Virus record (IMG/VR): IMGVR_UViG_3300042972_000018
Location: 1 to 35,263 of that record
DNA length: 35,263 nt
Origin: a virus
Lineage: Duplodnaviria; Caudoviricetes
Strand: one strand, 5' to 3'
Under the pieces are notes generated by a model, which was not told where the DNA came from, made no database searches, and worked only from the letters and a program-made list of their open reading frames with translations. The stretch's first letter is position 1. Each line of letters starts with the position of its first letter. Below, piece after piece: positions 2,649-35,263 of the stretch. The position numbers and the translations under genes are program-made.

Positions 2649-2777
2649 TTATGACAGTCTGATGTGTATCTTGCCACCACTTTTCCAAATCTCGACAAAA
2701 TATTTTGATTTTAGATAGTCGACAAAATCCATATCGAGCACGTCCGTCTCGATGTCGATGTCACTAGAGCTCTCCAT
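2649..2777 (-). CDS. Unannotated 42-aa protein overlapping the RT stop (MESSSDIDIETDVLDMDFVDYLKSKYFVEIWKSGGKIHIRLS)
   Basis: Hand-translated ATG(2777) to TAA(2649), preceded by AGGAGG. Fills the gap between the RT and the next gene. Confidence 0.5.
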   Translation of the reverse strand: MESSSDIDIETDVLDMDFVDYLKSKYFVEIWKSGGKIHIRLS

Positions 2778-3945
2778 TTGCTATCCTCCTTATAATCTGT
2801 GTCCTTGTCTTATATTCGTCACGCAAAGCCAGGCATTTATAATGCCCCTTGATGTAGATATAGTTAAAAAGCCTATCATCTATCATGTCGAGCACTTTCC
2901 GTCTGTTGGCATATTCATTGTAATGACCGAGCAATCCGAGATACGAGTTAATGCTATTGACGCATTTCTTGATTTCTCCTATTGCCTTTGCATGGTTGAG
3001 TGCCCCTATGGCGCTCCTCAGATTGCCGATTGTTCTGTTCATGGCATACACTCTCCCAGGCTTGACTACGGCGCCTGTGAACGGCACGCCCTTGGAGCAG
3101 TGCTGGAAATAAAATTTCTTCGTATTCAACCTTAGCCCGATAGCCGATAACTCTTTCCTGATTATCGGAACGAGATTTAAAAGCCGTTCCTTGTCGGTCG
3201 AAATGCAATACATATCATCAACGTATCTTCCATGGTATTTCGTTCCGTACTTTTCGATAAGCCAATCAATTCTGTTAAGGTAAAAGTTCGCAAATAGCTG
3301 CGAAAACAGATTTCCGATTGCAAGCCCCTTGCCTTTGCCGTTTGTAAAAAGCGACTTTTCCTTTGGAATGTGACTCCAAAGACTATCCGGGCTTTTTCTG
3401 ATGCAATTTTTCTGCGGCTCGTGCATGATGACCGCCTTGCACAAAAATCTCAAATCCTCCTTGTCCTCTCCGTTATAGTTGCTGACAACGAAATCGTCTA
3501 TCATGGATGCCATAATGGATTTGCCAATCGACATGAAAAATCCCTTGATGTCGAGCGTCATGCAATAACAGTCCGTCTTGTAGTCGCGGCTGCACTCCCT
3601 CATGTCGTTTTTAAGACATTCAACTCCGTACAACTGTCCCTTGTCCTTTCGGCAATTAAAAGTTCTGTCGTTGAACGCACGCTCGAATAGCGGTTCTAGC
3701 CTGATGGCAATGTAATGATGGATGATTCTGTCTTCAAAAGCGGCGGCAAACACTTCCCGATAACGTGGCCGTGTGACCACAAAACAGATTGACTTGCCCG
3801 GAGCATAAGTCCTACAGTTTACTCTGTCCCTTAACTCTATGAGTTTCGGCACATAGTCCATTTCGTATTCTATTGCGCTCGCTGTTCTCCGCTTTCCTCT
3901 GCGGCAGACGAAATACGCTTGCAGGAGATTCTCAAGGTTTATCAT
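2764..3945 (-). CDS. DGR reverse transcriptase
   Basis: GLAIGNLFSQLFAN (the DGR-type [LIV]GxxxSQ motif), RYVDD catalytic motif, REVFAAAFEDRIIHH, LDIKGFF. 393 aa, adjacent to TR and avd. Confidence 0.97.
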   Translation of the reverse strand: MINLENLLQAYFVCRRGKRRTASAIEYEMDYVPKLIELRDRVNCRTYAPGKSICFVVTRPRYREVFAAAFEDRIIHHYIAIRLEPLFERAFNDRTFNCRKDKGQLYGVECLKNDMRECSRDYKTDCYCMTLDIKGFFMSIGKSIMASMIDDFVVSNYNGEDKEDLRFLCKAVIMHEPQKNCIRKSPDSLWSHIPKEKSLFTNGKGKGLAIGNLFSQLFANFYLNRIDWLIEKYGTKYHGRYVDDMYCISTDKERLLNLVPIIRKELSAIGLRLNTKKFYFQHCSKGVPFTGAVVKPGRVYAMNRTIGNLRSAIGALNHAKAIGEIKKCVNSINSYLGLLGHYNEYANRRKVLDMIDDRLFNYIYIKGHYKCLALRDEYKTRTQIIRRIANGEL

Positions 3946-3965: not shown

Positions 3966-4064
3966 TGCTGAGACTGCCCTAACGTGACCTGAGTTGCTCG
4001 CCTTAGTGTTCCAGTTGTTGAGGTTGCCATCGTTGAGGTACAGATTCCAAGCGTTAGAACTGCC
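3966..4064 (-). repeat. DGR template repeat (TR), 99 bp
   Basis: Reads GSSNAWNLYLNDGNLNNWNTKASNSGHVRAVSA in the target frame, with 8 AAY codons and 29 adenines. Matches 4608-4706 and 30725-30819. Confidence 0.96.
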
Positions 4065-4137: not shown

Positions 4138-4539
4138 TCAGCCTTGGCTTGTCCGGTTCCCGCATTTTTCGCCCACGCTGATGAGCGAACTCTTCCATGC
4201 TGTGCTCTGTCTTCCAATTGATTCCATCATCTCGGAGATATGTGCGTGCCGCCCTAAACTTATCCACTTTCTCTCGCCTGCAATCCGAACAAGGGTCTTG
4301 AGCACCTCGAACGACACCTGAAAATCAGTCAGCGCCCCAATTCTGACGGAAAGCGGTTTTTCCATGTATGCTTTCGTAACGAGCAAAAGGAGGTTGATTG
4401 AGATGTCGTGCATTTTCCCGCCTATGGTGTACTTGTACGCACGTGGAAAATTGACTGTGATGTCGAGGATTTCATCGAGCAAATGCCTCATGTCGATGTA
4501 GATTCTCGTCCTTGATGCAAGTTTGAGTTTGTTTGCCAT
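4138..4539 (-). CDS. avd: Avd-like accessory variability determinant (four-helix bundle)
   Basis: 133 aa, basic and helical, with FPRAYKYTIG and IGRQSTAW motifs. Lies between target and TR. Confidence 0.9.
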   Translation of the reverse strand: MANKLKLASRTRIYIDMRHLLDEILDITVNFPRAYKYTIGGKMHDISINLLLLVTKAYMEKPLSVRIGALTDFQVSFEVLKTLVRIAGERKWISLGRHAHISEMMESIGRQSTAWKSSLISVGEKCGNRTSQG

Positions 4540-4554
4540 TTTTTAATTTATAAC

Positions 4555-4574
4555 GCCGCACCTTAAAGTGCGGC
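4555..4574. promoter_or_regulatory. DGR target-recognition hairpin/cruciform downstream of VR1
   Basis: Perfect 7-bp inverted repeat GCCGCAC-cttaaa-GTGCGGC, 21 nt past the stop codon of the target gene. Confidence 0.75.
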
Positions 4575-4595: not shown

Positions 4596-5510
4596 CTACG
4601 AAATAAATGCTGAGACTGCCCTAACGTGACCTGAGTTGCTCGCCTTAGTGCGCCAGTAGTTGAGGTAGCCATCGATGAGGTACAGAAACCAAGCGGTAGA
4701 ACTGCCGTTTTCCGTTGAAGTCCAATACCAAGCTTCTGCCAACTGTGTTGCACCCGAGATGAGACTTAGCGCATAATTGACCTTAACCATGTTGGCGTAT
4801 ACCATCATCCATTCGGCAACGGAGGGTAGCCACCATTTTCCTGTCGTCAGCCCTGCACCCTTTGAATTTGTCCTACTATATAAGTTGCAAAAGCCGGGGG
4901 CGTAACTTGCGGTGTTGGTTACTGCATTTGCGGTAGACGCTGCAATCTGCGCTGCGGTATTTGCCTTTCCGTTCCAATCGTTCATCGCTGCCACCCTGTC
5001 GCCTGTGCTCGTTCCACCGCCTGTTATTGCAGCGGATGACCACAAAAGTGTCGTGGGTGATTCTGTCGGGGCTACAACCAGCACGTGACCGCCCTCGACA
5101 ATGGCCACTCCGTCCGCAATTTCTCCCGAATTTTCGTAGGATTTCCACTTGTAGGGTTTGACCATCAAAGGGTAATTGTCGGACGCACGATGGAACATGA
5201 CAAAAACTCCGTCCTCCATCATGCTCAGGGTATGTCCTCCGAGTAACGAGGTCTGTAGATTTTGCGGAGTAACTAGCTTTCCGCTTTTGTCTGTGTCCGC
5301 CATCACCAGTTTCTGTCCTGTCGACAGGGTGGTAACCTCTGCCGATGCATCTATCAAAGCCTCTCTGACAACCTTAATTAAGTCTGATTTTTTAATTGAT
5401 GTTGACTTTCCGCCAACCACCAACCTCACCAAGTCAGTATCACCGAACGTTGTAACTGGAGTAAGGCTAGCTTCCTTGGTAAAACCTTTGCCTGTTGTTG
5501 TATCTGCCAT
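4596..5510 (-). CDS. DGR target protein 1 with C-terminal C-type-lectin-like variable domain; likely receptor-binding/tail-associated adhesin
   Basis: WWLPSVAEW...WYWTSTE...AW...VRAVSAF C-terminus typical of CLec-fold DGR targets. Contains VR1 and follows the tail fibre genes. Confidence 0.9.
   Translation of the reverse strand: MADTTTGKGFTKEASLTPVTTFGDTDLVRLVVGGKSTSIKKSDLIKVVREALIDASAEVTTLSTGQKLVMADTDKSGKLVTPQNLQTSLLGGHTLSMMEDGVFVMFHRASDNYPLMVKPYKWKSYENSGEIADGVAIVEGGHVLVVAPTESPTTLLWSSAAITGGGTSTGDRVAAMNDWNGKANTAAQIAASTANAVTNTASYAPGFCNLYSRTNSKGAGLTTGKWWLPSVAEWMMVYANMVKVNYALSLISGATQLAEAWYWTSTENGSSTAWFLYLIDGYLNYWRTKASNSGHVRAVSAFIS
4608..4706 (-). repeat. Variable region VR1
   Basis: 99-bp ungapped match to TR with 8 mismatches, all at TR adenines (coding strand). 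Confidence 0.96.
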
Positions 5511-6252: not shown

Positions 6253-9200
6253 TTATTGTCTTAAATCACGCACATACCATCTACTGTTTGCAGCATAATA
6301 GATACACATATACAGATCCTGATTAGCCGTTTCAACAGTTGTTCCCATTGCTATCACTCCATTTCCTGCATAATCCATACCGCCAGCACTATCCGATTTA
6401 AGGAAAATTTGACTACCTGTAGTCATTATCATACAGCTTTGACCGTCCACAAGCTGTGTTGACGGTAAGGTAACTGTTATTGTATGAGCTGGTCTGGTAA
6501 TAACGAGCGAAGGAAAATAAGTCTGACCGTTCAGCGTAGCTGTGCAGGGATCATCACCGACCGTACAATCTGTTGTAACTGCTACTATTGCTTGTGCTAG
6601 ATTATTGATGTAAGTCCCTTCCGTACGTCTTGATACTAAGTACACACTTCCATAACTCAATATAGCCCTAGCACTCGTCTGTGCAGTGATACGGATGCCA
6701 ATTCCGGCCGTATCTTGTGTATATACACTAATGCCAGTATCTCCGTCTGCCCTGACGCTAATCAGAGATGCACCAGCGTTAATCTGTACGTTATGATTAG
6801 CGTTTCCGATATAGACATTTCCACCTCCATCACCGACAACATCAGACCTAAGCCCAAATTCATCGATTGAAAATTTACCAATCTTACCAGCCGTTGCAAC
6901 AACAGTACCGCTGAATGTAGCACCTCCAGCACCCACAATATTACCGTCTTTGTCAACGGAAAATGTAATTGCCCCTGCATTGTTTTTGATTACAAAGTTA
7001 TCAGAATTAGCGCTGATAAGCCCACTTATAATATCAATGCTAGTGCGAGTTAATCCCGATATAATATCATTAGTCTTGGAATCGGTATAACCATTAGCCG
7101 AATTGATTGCATCGTTAGCTTTGTTGGTCGCATCCGTTGCAGCATCCGTCTTGGCCTGGGTAACAGACAGAGAGATACTGTCCGCCTTTTGGTCAATGTC
7201 GGACAACTGTGTCTGTATAGAGTTGTTGTTGCTGTCATAATCAGTCTTGCTGACCTTGCTGCTGATCTCGTCAGATAGCATCGTGACCTGAGAGTCGGTA
7301 TATGTCTTTGCTGCGGTTGTTGCAGCGGTCTGAGCATTATTGGCTTTTGTTGTCGCATCGCTAGCGGCAGCATTGATTGCAGCCGACTGTGCTGCATTTG
7401 CCTTGGCGGTAGCATCGGATGATGCATCCGTCTTGACCTGACTTACCTCAGCGGTGATACTGTCGGCCCTCTGATTGACGTCGGAGATGGACTCCATAAG
7501 AGTGTTGGTCTCCTCATCGTATGCGGTCTGCTCCACCTTGCTGCTGATGGAGTCCTTGAGTATCTCGACCTGCGAGTGAGTGTAATCATCCAGGGACTCA
7601 TTACTTGTGTACTCGTCCCAATCCGCGTTGACGATAAGTTTGCCGTTATCATCAGTTGCAGGGATATATGCTCCGGTATCGGTAACGAGGGGGTTGCCGA
7701 GATCGTCCGTCAGCAATACGATCGGGCAACTGCTCGTTGCAGCATTTGAGAGGTACAGTTGTCCGGATAGTCTCAAGAGACTGTTTTTTGCATAGGTCGT
7801 ACCGATCACCCAATCTCCTGAGGGGATAATCTTGTACATGTCGGTGTATGCCTGTGCAGCACTTGTGGCTGCTGCCTGGGCTGCATTGGCCTTTGCCGTT
7901 GCGTCACTAGCAGCGGTGCTGATGGCGGAACTCTTTGCATTTGCCGATGTGGTATCGGCATACGACTTGGCGGATGAGAGAGCATTGTTGGCTTTTGTCG
8001 TCGCATCTGTGGCAGCGTCCGTCTTGGCCTGGGTAACAGACAGAGAGATACTGTCCGCCTTTTGGTCAATGTCGGACAACTGTGTCTGTATAGAGTTGTT
8101 GTTGCTGTCATAATCAGTCTTGCTGACCTTGCTGCTGATCTCGTCAGATAGCATCGTGACCTGAGAGTCGGTATATGTCTTTGCTGCGGTTGTTGCAGCG
8201 GTCTGAGCATTATTGGCTTTTGTTGTCGCATCGCTAGCGGCAGCATTGATTGCAGCCGACTGTGCTGCATTTGCCTTGGCGGTAGCATCGGATGATGCAT
8301 CCGTCTTGACCTGACTTACCTCAGCGGTGATACTGTCGGCCCTCTGATTGACGTCGGAGATGGACTCCATAAGAGTGTTGGTCTCCTCATCGTATGCGGT
8401 CTGCTCCACCTTGCTGCTGATGGAGTCCTTGAGTATCTCGACCTGCGAGTGAGTGTAATCATCCAGGGACTCATTACTTGTGTACTCGTCCCAATCCGCG
8501 TTGACGATAAGTTTGCCGTTATCATCAGTTGCAGGGATATATGCTCCGGTATCGGTAACGAGGGGGTTGCCGAGATCGTCCGTCAGCAATACGATCGGGC
8601 AACTGCTCGTTGCAGCATTTGAGAGGTACAGTTGTCCGGATAGTCTCAAGAGACTGTTTTTTGCATAGGTCGTACCGATCACCCAATCTCCTGAGGGGAT
8701 AATCTTGTACATGTCGGTGTATGCCTGTGCAGCACTTGTGGCTGCTGCCTGGGCTGCATTGGCCTTTGCCGTTGCGTCACTAGCAGCGGTGCTGATGGCG
8801 GAACTCTTTGCATTTGCCGATGTGGTATCGGCATACGACTTGGCGGATGAGAGAGCATTGTTGGCTTTTGTCGTCGCATCTGTGGCAGCGTCCGTCTTGG
8901 CCTGAGTCACAGATAGCGAGATACTGTCGGCCTTTTGGTCGACTGTCGATATAGCCTCAGCAACATTAGTCACCTCACCGGAGGCGCTCATCGTCTCGAG
9001 TTCGGTCGCAATGATCTTGACTTTTGCAGGTGAGAGCACGACAATATCCTTGCCCTCGAGCGTATAAGTATTGATGCCCTTGTATAGTGCGAAAATGGGC
9101 GCTCCGTCTGCAACAGTATCGAGCATGATAGCATTTTGTCGAGTTGGGTCGCTATCGTTACCCAGCGTGACGATCACGTCATTTGCGGAGGGCGCATCAT

Positions 9201-10362
9201 TTGTCGTGTCTTCACAATCAGTTTTTGACAAATCCACCCAGGCATACTTATGGCCTTTGCCGTCATCATATAGTGTCGTGTCATCCGATACGGCAACGAT
9301 CTTGCGCCAATAGCGCTTGTTGCTTACATTTGTGTATACCCCGGCTTTGATGTTAAATGATTGGCAAAGGGCCTGGTCTCCGACCGCGAAAAGGTTGGTC
9401 GTCTGGGTCGTTCCGTCATCGGCCAATAGATAGCACCTATAACTGTCACCGTTATCAACGACACTAAAGATCGTCCCACCGGCAGGCGAAAAAATGAACA
9501 CACCACCGGTATATGACACTTTCCGGATCTCCAACTCATGGAAAATTGCCTTACCCCAGACTGTGAGGTTTTTAAGCAACAATCCGTTTTGCGTGAGGGA
9601 AAAACCGCTTTGTGCAGCCTCATCAAAATTTGATGATTTGAGACTGTCCAAAACCGCATTACCCAGAGCGTCTATGGAATAAGCCGAGCCGATGTTTAAG
9701 CCTTGGCTAAATCTTGCGCCAAGCTTAAATAATATGTTGGAGACGATGTTGGTGATGGAGGCATCGCCAATGGTGGCACTATCTGCACTAACGGATTTAA
9801 GGGTGGCATTGCCGTTTTCATCAATCGCATAATCCGTCCCGAGTTTGATGCCCTCATCAAATGTTGCGTTGGCTAAAAATACAATATCACCGATGATCCT
9901 GTTGATAGTGGCATCACCTAATGTAGCACTATCAGCCTTGATGGATTTGAGTACGGCATTGCCTAATTTGTCAATGCTATATGAGTTGATCTTGATACCA
10001 TTGTCAAAAAGGGCATCACCTACAGAGTGCAGGCCCTTAACAAAAGAGATAATGCCCTGGGCCGTATCGTCTGTAGTCTTTGACAAAAATACATCCTTGA
10101 GGGCTGCAATAGCATCCGAAATCTCTTTAGCTATCGTAGTCCAGTCGGTTGAGTCTTCAGTCAGATTTTCGGCTTGTGTCGCCAGGTTGGCCGTACCGGC
10201 TTTTGTAGCATAATCCGCGGCACCTGCCTTATCGGCATAGCCTGCCTGAGACGCGTAATCAGGGGTGCCGGAATAACTGACACCGACTGATCCGGAACTT
10301 TGCACAACCGTTCCGGACGCATTATCTTTTGGCGCATCGTATTTTTTGATTATCCTGCTCAT
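6253..10362 (-). CDS. Large tail fibre / host-specificity protein with Ala-rich coiled-coil repeats
   Basis: 1369 aa. YSIDxxGNAxL repeats near the N-terminus, DATxKANxA coiled-coil repeats, Gly-rich beta C-terminus. Follows the tail genes. Confidence 0.8.
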   Translation of the reverse strand: MSRIIKKYDAPKDNASGTVVQSSGSVGVSYSGTPDYASQAGYADKAGAADYATKAGTANLATQAENLTEDSTDWTTIAKEISDAIAALKDVFLSKTTDDTAQGIISFVKGLHSVGDALFDNGIKINSYSIDKLGNAVLKSIKADSATLGDATINRIIGDIVFLANATFDEGIKLGTDYAIDENGNATLKSVSADSATIGDASITNIVSNILFKLGARFSQGLNIGSAYSIDALGNAVLDSLKSSNFDEAAQSGFSLTQNGLLLKNLTVWGKAIFHELEIRKVSYTGGVFIFSPAGGTIFSVVDNGDSYRCYLLADDGTTQTTNLFAVGDQALCQSFNIKAGVYTNVSNKRYWRKIVAVSDDTTLYDDGKGHKYAWVDLSKTDCEDTTNDAPSANDVIVTLGNDSDPTRQNAIMLDTVADGAPIFALYKGINTYTLEGKDIVVLSPAKVKIIATELETMSASGEVTNVAEAISTVDQKADSISLSVTQAKTDAATDATTKANNALSSAKSYADTTSANAKSSAISTAASDATAKANAAQAAATSAAQAYTDMYKIIPSGDWVIGTTYAKNSLLRLSGQLYLSNAATSSCPIVLLTDDLGNPLVTDTGAYIPATDDNGKLIVNADWDEYTSNESLDDYTHSQVEILKDSISSKVEQTAYDEETNTLMESISDVNQRADSITAEVSQVKTDASSDATAKANAAQSAAINAAASDATTKANNAQTAATTAAKTYTDSQVTMLSDEISSKVSKTDYDSNNNSIQTQLSDIDQKADSISLSVTQAKTDAATDATTKANNALSSAKSYADTTSANAKSSAISTAASDATAKANAAQAAATSAAQAYTDMYKIIPSGDWVIGTTYAKNSLLRLSGQLYLSNAATSSCPIVLLTDDLGNPLVTDTGAYIPATDDNGKLIVNADWDEYTSNESLDDYTHSQVEILKDSISSKVEQTAYDEETNTLMESISDVNQRADSITAEVSQVKTDASSDATAKANAAQSAAINAAASDATTKANNAQTAATTAAKTYTDSQVTMLSDEISSKVSKTDYDSNNNSIQTQLSDIDQKADSISLSVTQAKTDAATDATNKANDAINSANGYTDSKTNDIISGLTRTSIDIISGLISANSDNFVIKNNAGAITFSVDKDGNIVGAGGATFSGTVVATAGKIGKFSIDEFGLRSDVVGDGGGNVYIGNANHNVQINAGASLISVRADGDTGISVYTQDTAGIGIRITAQTSARAILSYGSVYLVSRRTEGTYINNLAQAIVAVTTDCTVGDDPCTATLNGQTYFPSLVITRPAHTITVTLPSTQLVDGQSCMIMTTGSQIFLKSDSAGGMDYAGNGVIAMGTTVETANQDLYMCIYYAANSRWYVRDLRQ
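7145..8904. repeat. In-frame tandem duplication, period 873 bp (291 aa), two copies plus 14 bp
   Basis: Identical protein blocks, and alternative-frame ORFs are also identical at offset 873 (7443..7652 = 8316..8525; 7607..7795 = 8480..8668). First mismatches at 7144/8017 and 8032/8905. Confidence 0.93.
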
Positions 10363-26824: not shown

Positions 26825-27428
26825 GATCTATTGTCTTAAAGTAATTATCATACTCCTCGTCAAAGCCATGCTCATGGTTGTAGTATGCCTGACCGCGGTC
26901 TACTAAGAACTTGCCAAGAGCGTTAGTTATCATTATCGGGTCAAATGATCCGTAGAACGATCCGTACTTTCCGTCTTGTATTCGGCGGAAGAACAACATC
27001 AACTCACTCACCTTGAGGTAGAATACTCTTGAGATGATCATCTCGCTGAGTTGTGATAGCTGATAGGTTGTTATCTTGCCCTTTGATCCTGAGAACTCGC
27101 TGATGCCAACTAATTGGGTCATCACCCATTGATATGCCGTCCGTGGTCCGTAAGCCTGATTGATTATTGCCAAGGTCGGTGCAGAACCGAAGTAGCAACG
27201 CTTTGCATCCTGAGTGTAAGAGATCAGTTTTTTTGGGCTAAAAAGGCTCATGAACGACTGTCTGTCTCCGTAGTTTCTGATTACGGAGAGCACTTTCGTT
27301 TTCACGCTCAGCCTCTGCAAAGAGCTCTGCGTAGCCTTTGAGACGCTCCCTTGTTGCCGGATCTGCGTTAATGCCGAGTCCATCGCCGTCTTCAATGGCG
27401 GAATTTCTGTTTTCGTTTTCTGTTCCAT
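26802..27428 (-). CDS. Replication-module protein downstream of the initiator (possible helicase loader equivalent)
   Basis: Position; LKVSELMLFF...GKYGSFYGSFDP motif. Confidence 0.6.
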   Translation of the reverse strand: MEQKTKTEIPPLKTAMDSALTQIRQQGSVSKATQSSLQRLSVKTKVLSVIRNYGDRQSFMSLFSPKKLISYTQDAKRCYFGSAPTLAIINQAYGPRTAYQWVMTQLVGISEFSGSKGKITTYQLSQLSEMIISRVFYLKVSELMLFFRRIQDGKYGSFYGSFDPIMITNALGKFLVDRGQAYYNHEHGFDEEYDNYFKTIDHEQTESV

Positions 27429-28353
27429 GTGCTGTATTGTTATAATTGCCGTCTAAAATCTTGGGGAAATTGTTTGGTTTTAAAATCCAATCGAATGTTG
27501 CTACAAAGCCTCGTTCGCCACCGCCGTTGAGAAAATCACTTTGACTCGCGAGGACGATGACTTTTTTGACATTCTCGATGCCGTAGTTCCGGATGCGAGC
27601 TTCAAGCATTGATTTTCTCTGATTTTCGATCTTCGAGCGGATGCGTGGCATTGTCGAATGATTTTCATCCAGAGTTTTATTATAAAATTCTTTGAAATCG
27701 AAATTTAAATCGCAGCCAGCAGCCAGCGTTCTTTCCATTGCTGGTACGTTAGTACTAGCAATCTTTGAGTTATTATATATATTATTATATTCTCTCTCTG
27801 TTGTCGTTTTGTTTGTCGTTTTGTTTGTCGGTTGCTTTGTCGGTTGGTTTGTCACTTCGTTTGTCATTTCGTTTGTCGCTAATTCATTTTTGATTGATGT
27901 AACTACTTGTTTTTTAGTGCTTTGCGGATTTATTTTGTTTGTCGTTTTGTTTGTCGGTTGGTTTGTCACTTCGTTTGTCATTTCGTTTGTCGGTTGCTTT
28001 GTCGTTTTGTTTGTCGCTCCTTTGTCGCTCGAAGATACGCTAACCTGATAACTGTCATATTTACAGATAGTTATAAGCCTAAATTGTTTGTCGCTTATCA
28101 TAGTGATTTCGGACGTCTCAACAAGCCTTGATAAACACGTTCTGATAGAGCGGACGGTGATGCCTGTCTGTTCTGACAAAGTTGCAAGAGATGTTACGAT
28201 TTGCCCTTTTTTCACCGACTTTCCACGCACGCTACGATCATAAGGGCTTGCAGTCATCAGCAGATGCAAAAACAAATGAACCATGTGAGAGTCTTTATAC
28301 CACTCCCACTCCGTCAATTTCCGATATAGTTTCAACCAGCCTTCCATAATCAA
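27238..28353 (-). CDS. Phage replication initiator / replisome organizer
   Basis: GWLKLYRKLTEWEWY, N-terminal winged HTH (GQIVTSLATLSEQTG), central iteron-encoded repeats, FDWILKPNNFPKILDGNY. Confidence 0.85.
   Translation of the reverse strand: MIMEGWLKLYRKLTEWEWYKDSHMVHLFLHLLMTASPYDRSVRGKSVKKGQIVTSLATLSEQTGITVRSIRTCLSRLVETSEITMISDKQFRLITICKYDSYQVSVSSSDKGATNKTTKQPTNEMTNEVTNQPTNKTTNKINPQSTKKQVVTSIKNELATNEMTNEVTNQPTKQPTNKTTNKTTTEREYNNIYNNSKIASTNVPAMERTLAAGCDLNFDFKEFYNKTLDENHSTMPRIRSKIENQRKSMLEARIRNYGIENVKKVIVLASQSDFLNGGGERGFVATFDWILKPNNFPKILDGNYNNTAHGTENENRNSAIEDGDGLGINADPATRERLKGYAELFAEAERENESALRNQKLRRQTVVHEPF
27770..28030. repeat. Iteron array plus AT-rich tract: putative phage replication origin
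   Basis: TTGTC cores at 12-bp period: 7 copies at 27801-27877 and 8 copies at 27939-28026 (last spacing 11). AT-only run around 27770-27791. Confidence 0.8.
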
Positions 28354-30656: not shown

Positions 30657-30688
30657 TTGTGCCCCTGTCATTAAGGACCAGGGCACAA
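30657..30688. promoter_or_regulatory. Hairpin downstream of VR2 (candidate DGR target-recognition element or terminator)
   Basis: TTGTGCCCCTGTC-attaag-GACCAGGGCACAA, 11 of 13 pairs; 6-nt loop containing TTAA like the VR1 hairpin. Confidence 0.6.
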
Positions 30689-30718
30689 CTTTATGAAACA
30701 ACAATTAACAACTAACAA

Positions 30719-31252
30719 TTAAAATGCTGAGACTGCCCTAACGAGACCTGAGTAGCCCGCCTTAGTGCCCCAGCCGAGGTTGCCAACGAGGAGGGACAGA
30801 CCCCAAGCGTAAGAACTGCTGCATTCCGTTGATGTCCAATACCAACCGTCCCAAAAAGGCTTTCCTCCAACAAATTTGATTGCCTCATCAATCCCCTTTC
30901 GGAAAAGTTGGATGAACTTTAACTCAGCAGCCGATGGAATATATTCTCCGTCTTCGAGATTGATTTCCGGATTCAGGCCTATCTGCTCCAGGTGTTTGGT
31001 ATTCTCTTTGCCATTCCAGTCAGCGGTGGCATCAAGGTAGTTGTCCTTATAGCCGTCATAGTCTGTGTGGTCCATTTTCGACGTCAGCGGTACATAATCC
31101 GCTGATGCGTCATGCAGGGCAATACAGATGGCTTTCGAGCCAAGTTTAAGCCCAACATATCTACAATTCTTTCTCTCCTGTTCACTGTTTCTTCCGGTGA
31201 ACCGGATTTTCTTTCCGTTTTTCAGTATTAAGTAAATTCCATCCATTTTCAT
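30719..31252 (-). CDS. DGR target protein 2 (remote); stand-alone CLec-like variable domain
   Basis: Shares DWNGKxNT, [LI]PSxAE, WYWTSTE and VRAVSAF with target 1; the 3' end matches the TR. Confidence 0.9.
   Translation of the reverse strand: MKMDGIYLILKNGKKIRFTGRNSEQERKNCRYVGLKLGSKAICIALHDASADYVPLTSKMDHTDYDGYKDNYLDATADWNGKENTKHLEQIGLNPEINLEDGEYIPSAAELKFIQLFRKGIDEAIKFVGGKPFWDGWYWTSTECSSSYAWGLSLLVGNLGWGTKAGYSGLVRAVSAF
30725..30819 (-). repeat. Variable region VR2
   Basis: Matches TR 3966-4063 with 14 substitutions, all at TR adenines, plus a 3-nt deletion in the AAC-AAC tandem. Confidence 0.93.
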
Positions 31253-33212: not shown

Positions 33213-33566
33213 TCAACTCCTCCTTTCCATTCTCTCTACCCGAACGGTGCTCCTTTCCGACCTTATCAGGTTTCGCCCTGAGAACATGCTGGGCATTGCC
33301 ACAACAAGGAGTATCAGGGCAATCACCTGACGCTTGATAGGTGACAGGTCAAACGAGATGTTGTAACGCGTGCAGAACCACCAGGCGGACAGTTCGTTGA
33401 TCTTTGTTACTCCAATCTTCCTGAAGATGTTGGCAGCGTGGTTTTGGACTGTGTTTTCGGATATAAACAGTCTGTTGGCAACGTCCTTTTTGGTTGCTCC
33501 CCACGCAAACAGTTCCGCAATTTGCTTTTCTCTTTTTGTTAAGTTGTTAGTTTCGTCTTTCTTCAT
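33213..33566 (-). CDS. LuxR-type HTH regulator with C-terminal hydrophobic segment
   Basis: LTKREKQIAELFAWGATKKDVANRLFISENTVQNHAANIFRKIG; start moved to MKKDET. Confidence 0.85.
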   Translation of the reverse strand: MKKDETNNLTKREKQIAELFAWGATKKDVANRLFISENTVQNHAANIFRKIGVTKINELSAWWFCTRYNISFDLSPIKRQVIALILLVVAMPSMFSGRNLIRSERSTVRVERMERRS

Positions 33567-33567
33567 T

Positions 33568-33786
33568 TTAATTTTCTCCCCAGACCTCTGTGATTCCATA
33601 CTTTCGGAATATGGAATTGATTTTTTTGTATTCACTAATTTTCGGTTCAATCGTTCCGTTAAGGTGCCTGATCCAAGACATTCTACCGCGGATCTCGAAT
33701 GCCGTCATGATCTCCGCCTTGATCTTTTTGGCGTCTTTTTTTCGGACTTGATTCCAGCCTTTCCTAAAAGAATATTCCTTTGCCAT
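33568..33786 (-). CDS. Cro-like first early gene
   Basis: 72 aa, basic, divergent from the repressor gene. Confidence 0.65.
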   Translation of the reverse strand: MAKEYSFRKGWNQVRKKDAKKIKAEIMTAFEIRGRMSWIRHLNGTIEPKISEYKKINSIFRKYGITEVWGEN

Positions 33787-33842
33787 GTATTTTTTATATC
33801 AAATAGTCTATTCTTACTATTGCAAGTATCTCACAAAATGAT

Positions 33843-33924
33843 TACCTTTGTATCGTAATTAGTAACAATGCAAAGATACAGAAAATATCTGTATCTCCAA
33901 CATAAAGTACAGATAATATCTGTA
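33843..33924. promoter_or_regulatory. Lysis/lysogeny switch: opposed -7 promoters and two 17-bp operators
   Basis: TACCTTTG (+, 33843-33850), TATCTTTG (-, 33871-33878), and TACAGA-N5-TCTGTA at 33877-33893 and 33908-33924. Confidence 0.8.
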
Positions 33925-33944
33925 TTTTAACATAATTTAGTTAT

Positions 33945-34610
33945 ATGGGAAGTGTGACAGCGTGTGATATAATCTCTAAATTACTGAAATATTGTAATTT
34001 AAGCGCAAAAGCGTTTTCCGAAAAGATTGGCATAGAAAGACCGCAAGCCATATATGATATATTAAATGGCAAAACAAAATCGATTAGTCGGTCAATGTCA
34101 ATTAAGATTTTATCTGTATTTCCGGAAATCGACAAAGCGTGGCTTTTGACAGGCGAGGGCGAAATGTTGAAAGAAAAGAAAGAGCCTCAACCGGATGACG
34201 ATCATAAAGATTACGAAACGTACCTCTTGCCCATGACCGCTGCCGGAGGTAGTCTTGTGGGGTTTGACTCTGATGGCGCTGCTGCTGCCGACTGTGAAAA
34301 GATAATATCCCCGATAGCCAAAGTTAGCTTTGCCATTACCGTATATGGTGAAAGTATGTATCCGACTTATCCGTCAGGCAGTAGGGTTTTGATAAAAAAG
34401 GCTGACCCAAATGTTTTTATCGAATGGGGTACAGTATATGTCCTTGATACGCTAGATGGCATCGTGATCAAAGAGGTACATAAAAGCAAAGATCCGAACA
34501 AGATTATATGCCACTCCATCAATTCAAAATACGATGATTTTGAGATCAACATGTCAAACGTACGTGGGTGGTATAGAGTTTTGGCAAGTATCAATATAGT
34601 GCATCTATAA
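33945..34610 (+). CDS. cI: CI-like repressor (HTH plus S24 peptidase)
   Basis: N-terminal HTH, WLLTGEGEML, AAGG cleavage-site region, VYGESMYP catalytic Ser, VIKEV catalytic Lys. Confidence 0.92.
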   Translation: MGSVTACDIISKLLKYCNLSAKAFSEKIGIERPQAIYDILNGKTKSISRSMSIKILSVFPEIDKAWLLTGEGEMLKEKKEPQPDDDHKDYETYLLPMTAAGGSLVGFDSDGAAAADCEKIISPIAKVSFAITVYGESMYPTYPSGSRVLIKKADPNVFIEWGTVYVLDTLDGIVIKEVHKSKDPNKIICHSINSKYDDFEINMSNVRGWYRVLASINIVHL

Positions 34611-34639: not shown

Positions 34640-35263
34640 TTGATCGTGAAAAAGAAATTATTAATTTTACTTTTACTCCTCCCTAGCATATCATGCTTTG
34701 CCTCAGGGAGCATTTGGCTTGATTTAAAAGATTCTGACGGCAGAACCATTATATCATTTTATCAAACTATTTATAGAACTGACTACTCAGGCGCCTGCGC
34801 TACTTATGACATGAATCTTGAAGAACATATAACCCCTAAAGATACATCCTTTTATCTTGGTATTGCTTTTGCAAATGTATTCCCTCATACTATGCCCGAA
34901 AAAGGCAGATTGCTCCTAAAACTCAGAAACGGTCAAAACTTATGTTTGTATTTGTCCAATAGACCGGCTTTACATGCATATATGTACATAGATGACGATG
35001 GAGATATTTATAATCTTGACCCTTTTGGTTATAAAATCCAGATGGTTTCGGGCTTATATCCTATCAGCAAAGATCAATTAGCGGAAATCGGATATGGCGT
35101 AACAAAAATAAGGATGGAACTAAAGGAAGAAAACGTGGAGGCGGAATTAGATCCAAAAGTCTTTGCGGACGCCTGTAAGGCATGCCTTGAAGACATATAC
35201 AACCATCTCCACCCCAAAAAGCACGAACCTCAAGACATGAAAACTTTTGAAAGTAATTTCTAA
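34640..35263 (+). CDS. Exported protein with signal peptide, probably co-transcribed with the repressor
   Basis: KKKLLILLLLLPSISCFA signal peptide; 29 nt after cI; ends at the window edge. Confidence 0.7.
   Translation: MIVKKKLLILLLLLPSISCFASGSIWLDLKDSDGRTIISFYQTIYRTDYSGACATYDMNLEEHITPKDTSFYLGIAFANVFPHTMPEKGRLLLKLRNGQNLCLYLSNRPALHAYMYIDDDGDIYNLDPFGYKIQMVSGLYPISKDQLAEIGYGVTKIRMELKEENVEAELDPKVFADACKACLEDIYNHLHPKKHEPQDMKTFESNF

Follow-up and report, generated by a model that had tools for sequence, protein, structure and literature searches.

A single DGR template has diversified two genes of this phage, one adjacent to it (target 1) and one remote (target 2). The initial annotation had proposed such a second, remote target, and the proposal was confirmed by the A-specific changes in the VR of that gene (VR2), by the allele of a sister phage and by 28 of 28 RT-bearing relatives. 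The overall reading that we consider probable is that one DGR rewrites both genes and that the remote one encodes an early, soluble, non-virion binder with a lectin fold, whose intracellular ligand changes. The non-virion nature of target 2 is the part that we hold with good confidence, and we infer that the protein is expressed early and stays out of the virion. That its ligand is a variable host defence or host-control protein, needed for infection in some strains, is a more tentative suggestion. Both the two-target layout and a non-structural or defence reading have already been published for related phages. If target 2 is an intracellular binder, phage DGRs have a second purpose besides receptor switching.

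The window, meaning the whole stretch of DNA that was analysed, is the entire record IMGVR_UViG_3300042972_000018 (35,263 nt). Pfam and PHROG annotation identified a temperate, HK97-like tailed phage with nearly all of its coding on the minus strand. From the right end, the gene order is a cI-like repressor, early and replication genes, terminase, head, tail, DGR and lysis genes. The features used in this analysis are as follows.

2764..3945, minus strand: DGR reverse transcriptase (RT), 393 aa, intact (Pfam RVT_1, E 6e-16; phrog_1423, E 9e-72)
3966..4063, minus strand: template repeat (TR), 98 nt with 29 adenines, rich in AAC/AAT codons (by alignment)
4138..4539, minus strand: Avd accessory protein, 133 aa (Pfam bAvd, E 3e-23, 82.6 bits against a cut-off of 40; phrog_3206)
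4555..4574, minus strand: VR1-side hairpin, 8 pairs and a 4-nt loop (z -4.5, 0/200 shuffles as good)
4596..5510, minus strand: target 1, 304 aa, N-terminal arm motif and CLec/DUF1566 domain (Pfam, PHROG and arm profile)
4608..4705, minus strand: VR1, with 8/8 substitutions relative to TR at TR adenines
30657..30688, minus strand: VR2-side hairpin, imperfect GC-rich stem and a 6-nt loop (-10.1 kcal/mol, z -2.6, 3/200 shuffles as good)
30719..31252, minus strand: target 2, 177 aa, CLec/DUF1566 fold (AlphaFold2 pLDDT 95.6)
30725..30819, minus strand: VR2, with 14 A-specific substitutions and an in-frame 3-nt deletion relative to TR 3966-4063
33213..34610, no strand assigned: divergent regulator pair, LuxR-type HTH and cI-like repressor (by annotation)

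A DGR-type RT, an Avd and TR-VR pairs differing at TR adenines were each present in the window, and the cassette runs in the order target 1, Avd, TR and RT. About 4e14 amino-acid variants are possible from this TR. Target 1 is the final gene of the tail module, after the tail genes, and is likely a tail-tip adhesin. Its N-terminus (window 4596-4890) is about 44 residues longer than in 10 aligned relatives, and the extra residues seem to duplicate the arm motif.

Alignment of VR2 with TR agreed with the first description of 14 substitutions at TR adenines plus one 3-nt deletion. The substitutions were 7 A>G, 5 A>T and 2 A>C, and with 29 A in 98 nt their all-adenine placement (14/14) has a hypergeometric P of about 1e-9. 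The deletion sits within AACAAC and can be due to slippage there; in-frame indels beside AAC are a known DGR trait in the account of Wu et al. (PMC5758913). When the window was searched with TR by blastn (E ≤ 1), only TR, VR1 (91.8%) and VR2 (82.7%, E 1e-19) were returned. VR2 is 26.7 kb away from TR, outside the structural module and between the immunity switch and the replication initiator.

The common 3' end that had been reported was also found: TR, VR1 and VR2 end in the same 18 nt, followed by CTTTT in TR and by TTT in both targets. From this pattern, the block would correspond to the IMH region. A hairpin lies downstream of each target, and none follows TR. The hairpin noted earlier behind the target 2 stop codon was recovered, though its stem is imperfect. 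It is weaker than the VR1 hairpin, has no U-run after it on the coding strand and is absent from the terminator predictions; it is likely a target-recognition element, as predicted from its sequence. Hairpins stand at the same place in most relatives, with differing stem sequences.

The sister phage (IMG/VR 3300044212_000092; loci L003, L005 and L006) carries a TR identical to that of the window, and the two RTs are 99% identical. Relative to TR, the sister VR2 allele lacks the deletion and has 10 substitutions, all at A. Compared with each other, the two alleles of VR2 show 11 differing sites, every one a TR adenine, plus the gap. None of the 68 non-A sites of VR2 differs, whereas the gene body has 77 differences in 426 nt (P about 1e-6). 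This result shows that VR2 has been overwritten from TR in both lineages since they split. The gene body gave dS 1.01, dN 0.088 and dN/dS 0.09, and the scaffold of target 2 is under purifying selection.

Of 249 viral loci with target-2 homologs, 80 were retrieved. The RT search covered 49 loci, with a strong DGR-RT match in 28, a weak match only in 4 and none in 17. In every one of the 28 RT-bearing relatives, the remote gene matched a TR adjoining the RT, at a distance of 9-50 kb on the contig. The mismatches between VR2 and TR fell at A in 371 of 383 cases; 24 records were purely A-specific and 5 had a 3-nt gap. The 28 records are not all independent, since they hold 19 distinct TRs. Rewriting is evident between lineages. 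In the window lineage itself, the VR2 allele was unchanged in the contigs of 5 runs (X3, X4, X6, X7 and X8), alongside the sister allele. Contigs lose low-frequency variants, one of these runs may have yielded the record itself, and a single campaign may lie behind all the studies. The constancy of the allele and the imperfect hairpin would fit a frozen relic, or a repeat made by chance or by assembly, to which we give practically no weight. The adenine placement, the independent sister allele, the homogenised non-A sites and the A-specific VR2 variation found in the relatives largely refute a relic for the family, and contiguous 874-nt contigs confirm the assembly.

Two further candidates were rejected. 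A change at 30749 in run X9, shared by three contigs, was dismissed as proof of homogenisation, since the site is a TR adenine. VR2 as a silent donor for VR1 was discarded on the uncorrelated alleles of the two VRs and the purifying selection on the protein body. Two relatives are unusual. The VR2 of L066 (G037) disagrees with its own TR (L094) at 7 non-A sites. These cluster at the 3' end, where this VR2 is similar to the TR of the L088 group; a cassette swap seems to have occurred, with the remote target not yet rewritten. In L060 (1285-3951), a target-2-type gene abuts Avd-TR-RT and lysis genes directly after a DNA polymerase, as a VR2-by-VR1 recombinant without late genes or as a misassembly through the repeat.

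Structure prediction was confident for target 2, whose AlphaFold2 model was built on a 33-sequence alignment, but not for target 1 (pLDDT 42, 11-sequence alignment). The best solved match of the target 2 model was the C-terminal domain of a B. ovatus pilus protein (4EPS; Z 15.5, rmsd 2.5, 169 residues). Legionella Lcl-C (8Q4E) gave Z 11.5 and Mtd (1YU0) Z 4.9, and the top viral structural match was a tail fibre. Pfam Lcl_C/DUF1566 (PF07603) matched below its cut-off (20.1 vs 34.9 bits), and the ESM Atlas returned only unnamed or DUF1566/DUF3310 clusters. Judged by the modelled fold, target 2 is a divergent DUF1566/Lcl-C member. VR2 encodes its final 32 residues, at the C-terminus of the CLec fold.

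The protein had been described as a stand-alone CLec-like domain of 177 aa, with no signal peptide and without the N-terminal extension of target 1. For the window protein this description holds. By hydropathy, neither a hydrophobic N-terminus nor a lipobox was found in target 2, and a hydrophobic N-terminus was seen in 0 of 68 homologs. Profile search for the target 1 arm motif was likewise negative in the 68 target-2 proteins (0/68). For the family, the stand-alone form does not hold, as a two-helix motif of about 30 residues (e.g. P0029, 1-45) is present at the N-terminus in 63 of the 68 homologs. In the examined loci this motif was seen solely in front of the target-2 domain, and it gave no Pfam match and no usable ESM Atlas match. 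It is absent from the window (0/430 frames) and from the roughly 13 closest homologs, which suggested that the target-2 domain can work alone. Target 2 of the window is the minimal version: 177 residues and no N-terminal extension, with a confident model and a sister allele.

In total, 311 homologs of similar length were found, and a search for longer fused forms (544-2000 residues) gave 9 distant DUF1566 proteins. DUF3310 is fused to the target-2 domain in L043 (5134-5949), L033 (5503-6318), L029 (1439-2254), P0088 and P0111; DUF3310 is presented as a SaV-like domain of early host-control proteins in PMC8306868. Other unnamed N-terminal domains occur on the target-2 domain in P0016, P0050, P0053 and L057, and in P0121 (692 aa) DUF1566-like domains related to target 2 occur three times in tandem.

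Target 2 is 35% identical to target 1 over 130 residues. A tree was built without the VR from 40 target-2 and 22 target-1 sequences, with target 1 recovered from 20 of 28 RT loci. The two targets formed separate clades (support 100/100, with a long-branch flag at the T1/T2 join), which suggested that the remote target is an old paralog and not a fresh copy in each genome.

Target 2 is located 2.6 kb downstream of the regulator pair on the leftward strand, ahead of a DnaD-like initiator (27238-28353). The initial annotation had placed it among early genes. The replication-side position and a pyrophosphatase directly downstream (PHROG, E 6e-45) agree with that, but the DUF2786 gene two genes upstream was just under the cut-off (E 1e-4), and 'MazG-like' was that annotation's own label. 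Among the loci examined, the pyrophosphatase flanks target 2 in the window and the sister only. It may be relevant because a phage MazG-like enzyme counters TIR-STING, according to a preprint (bioRxiv 10.1101/2022.06.09.495361). The sister has two extra genes between a 99-aa ORF and target 2 (L006:4692-5524) and a diverged pyrophosphatase, and from this comparison the region around target 2 is a mosaic accessory zone.

After 12 of the 80 loci had been removed by eye as near-duplicates, 68 were examined. A replication, recombination or transposition gene (polymerase, SSB, exonuclease, helicase or clamp) was within 4 ORFs of target 2 in 52 of them, and a methyltransferase was near it in 14. Homologs of the virion and packaging queries, which cover this tail type only, were near target 2 in 0 of the 68 loci, and PHROGs identified no structural gene among 36 neighbour representatives. 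At least four unrelated replication modules are represented among the neighbourhoods, in phage groups with different tails. In L015 (6091-6771) and L025 (1838-2497), the homologs belong to transposable (Mu-like) phages, whose early operon carries them immediately behind the transposase and ATPase genes.

Five near-complete records lacked the RT. Three of these (G004, G013 and G041) end within the tail module and were excluded, and G016 (L122) and G045 (L123) were counted. Both have continuous tail-lysis-integrase regions with a different tail tip and are without target 1, Avd, TR and RT, yet they keep target 2 and an intact GC hairpin (2/2 informative). L122 and L123 are candidates for diversification in trans. 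A sixth record, G033, gave no Avd match.

The closest cultured comparison is with the B. uniformis phages Bacuni F1, F2 and F4 (PMC8143477; MT635598, MT806186 and MT806185). They are described with the same target-Avd-TR-RT order before the lysis genes and with a distant second target likewise in the replication module. The Bacuni distal target is 50% identical to target 2 over 98% (E 3e-48) and falls in the same clade, but it has a 49-residue N-terminal extension that the window protein lacks. Bacuni replicate via a family-A polymerase module, whereas the window phage has a DnaD-like initiator/RusA module. Their remote-target VR is reported to vary between isolates (Hedzet et al. 2021, PMC8143477). 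Between F1 and F4, target 2 is identical (0 nt), target 1 differs by 13 residues and the hosts differ; between F1 and F2, target 2 differs by 11 residues, target 1 by 1, and the host is shared. The comparison, which covers three isolates and one contrast each way, speaks against adsorption being determined by target 2, and it equally lends no support to control of the strain range by VR2 from inside the cell. The role in host takeover or counter-defence that was initially offered as an example gained no support from the methyltransferase count or from the unaltered host of F2.

VR1 and VR2 are changed to the same extent, with 365 and 367 changed A sites, respectively, of 926 in 29 genomes (the VR2 of L066 was unaligned and scored 0). 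The similarity of VR1 to VR2 was 0.526 within a genome (n=13) versus 0.530 between genomes (n=40), so the two were uncorrelated. The amino-acid spectrum of VR2 equals that of VR1 (chi-square p 0.52) and fits mutation bias as its main source in both VRs, giving no sign of selection on VR2 for a ligand.

According to Wu et al. (PMC5758913), many phage DGRs combine an adjacent target with a non-adjacent one within 50 kb. By its published layout, Quimbyvirus (Benler et al. 2021, PMC8008677) has one TR, a tail-module target and a distal C-type-lectin target, the latter read there as non-structural and conflict-related. Its distal gene is given as on the opposite strand and near four methyltransferases, with a frameshifted RT, whereas in the window target 2 is co-oriented, has no methyltransferase beside it and is served by an intact RT. 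Dahlman et al. (2025, PMC12629997) report four induced prophage species with a distal second VR from the gut, whereas the window phage is from bioreactor sludge. Roseburia phage Shimadzu (Cornuault et al., bioRxiv 10.1101/575076) has a tail VR1 and a remote VR2 in orf43 by layout, but it is presented as a Firmicutes myovirus, unlike the window phage; both of its VRs are described as mutated in virion reads, with weaker selection on VR2. The BPP-1 DGR (mtd-avd-TR-brt), as outlined in PMC5758913 and PMC6199706, resembles that of the window in the A-specific TR-to-VR transfer, Avd, RT, shared 3' end, downstream inverted repeat and CLec-fold target. BPP-1 has a single adjacent target, a proven tail-fibre tip, and the window adds the remote one. 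The fold of target 2 is of the DUF1566/Lcl type and closer to 4EPS than to Mtd.

No experiment on the function of a distal DGR target was found in a literature search that ran mostly without subscription papers, and the accessible parts of PMC6199706, PMC8144416 and PMC10743442 describe no functional test of one. The results on clade, context, tail swap and host range make the cultured Bacuni phages the place to settle the role of the distal target.

In the preferred reading, TR RNA would be reverse-transcribed with adenine errors, as established for BPP-1 and suggested here by the sequence pattern, and the cDNA would overwrite whichever loci combine the common 3' end with a hairpin downstream. 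Because retrohoming would act on any such locus, one cassette could serve both genes at whatever distance. It would write target 1 as a tail-tip adhesin, and target 2 would be made early, stay in the cytoplasm and bind a variable ligand through its VR2 surface. The earlier view that target 2 is probably non-virion gains indirect support from the replication context, the separate clade, the missing arm motif, the retention after the tail swap and the Bacuni contrast, and also from the DUF3310 fusions and the lack of hydrophobic N-termini. Against it, the closest solved folds are surface adhesins (the pilus tip 4EPS and Lcl), and a tail fibre is the top viral match. A ligand-driven VR2 is opposed by the Bacuni F2 host, unaltered by an 11-residue change, and by the weaker selection reported for the Shimadzu VR2; the presence of a methyltransferase in only 14/68 loci also speaks against a counter-defence context.

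The chief rival, which we regard as unlikely, is that the scaffold has a fixed job and that VR2 is near-neutral, being rewritten since the gene descends from a DGR target with its signals kept. The spectrum and change load that VR2 shares with VR1, the Bacuni F2 host, the weak selection on VR2 in the Shimadzu preprint (bioRxiv 10.1101/575076), the persistence of target 2 in DGR-less phages and the tolerated one-codon deletion are all in line with such hitch-hiking. However, most lineages retain the downstream hairpin, with differing stems, as do DGR-less phages, and the VR matched its own TR in 28/28 records with 19 TRs. This indicates that targeting has persisted throughout a long history, even though few mutations would abolish it. 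The VR is also the binding surface in CLec targets as treated by Wu et al. (PMC5758913). Next comes the assumption of the Bacuni authors, whose paper reads both targets as fimbrial-tip adhesins and annotates the distal one 'putative fimbrial tip protein' (PMC8143477). Target 2 would then be loaded on the tail as a second receptor-binding tip, which we find improbable. An accessory adhesin would explain the adhesin-type fold and the identity to target 1, and the two-helix motif and linker of most homologs could dock on a partner. But no homolog has the arm motif and the clade of the window is without even the two-helix motif; moreover, the gene sits beside replication functions in phage groups that are unrelated and differ in their tails, stays after a tail-tip swap, and has a VR2 that host range does not track.

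It is more improbable still that target 2 is a soluble blocker or decoy, binding the phage's own receptor or its precursor and thereby causing superinfection exclusion or preventing binding to debris. With the same fold and the same template, target 2 could reach the specificities of target 1, but VR1 resembles VR2 no more closely within a genome than across genomes, hydropathy gave no export signal, and the gene is ahead of the replication genes, not beside the lysis genes. The intracellular-binder reading can also be extended to the whole family as hypermutated binders, an antibody-like counter-defence library across unrelated Bacteroidales phages. This extension, which we think rather unlikely, would make target 2 the founding member and take in lambda-like, Bacuni-like, transposable and 110-kb phages; where the gene outlives its cassette with the targeting signals intact, the DGR of a co-resident phage could diversify it in trans.

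The window occurs in metagenome runs from bioreactor sludge. The host is likely one of the Bacteroidales, because the genomes with target-2 homologs are mostly of this order (11 of 18 record titles: Prevotella/Prevotellaceae, Muribaculaceae, Porphyromonadaceae, Bacteroides and Alistipes); we read the other titles as likely binning errors. A sigma-70 scan of the window was near chance (33 vs 23.7 promoters), and the sigma-70 model is ill-suited to Bacteroidales. At the regulator pair, boxes at 33843 (+) and 33878 (-) resemble the Bacteroidetes -7 element, with the consensus TAnnTTTG. Because the record stops within an ORF beyond the repressor (34640-35263) and the window yielded no integrase, part of the genome is likely missing at the right end. 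Two 12-bp repeat arrays within the DnaD-like replication gene (27765-28042) are likely origin iterons. Internal repeats of 873 bp, up to 93% identical, lie at 7077-8940 in a 1369-aa tail-region protein (6253-10362).
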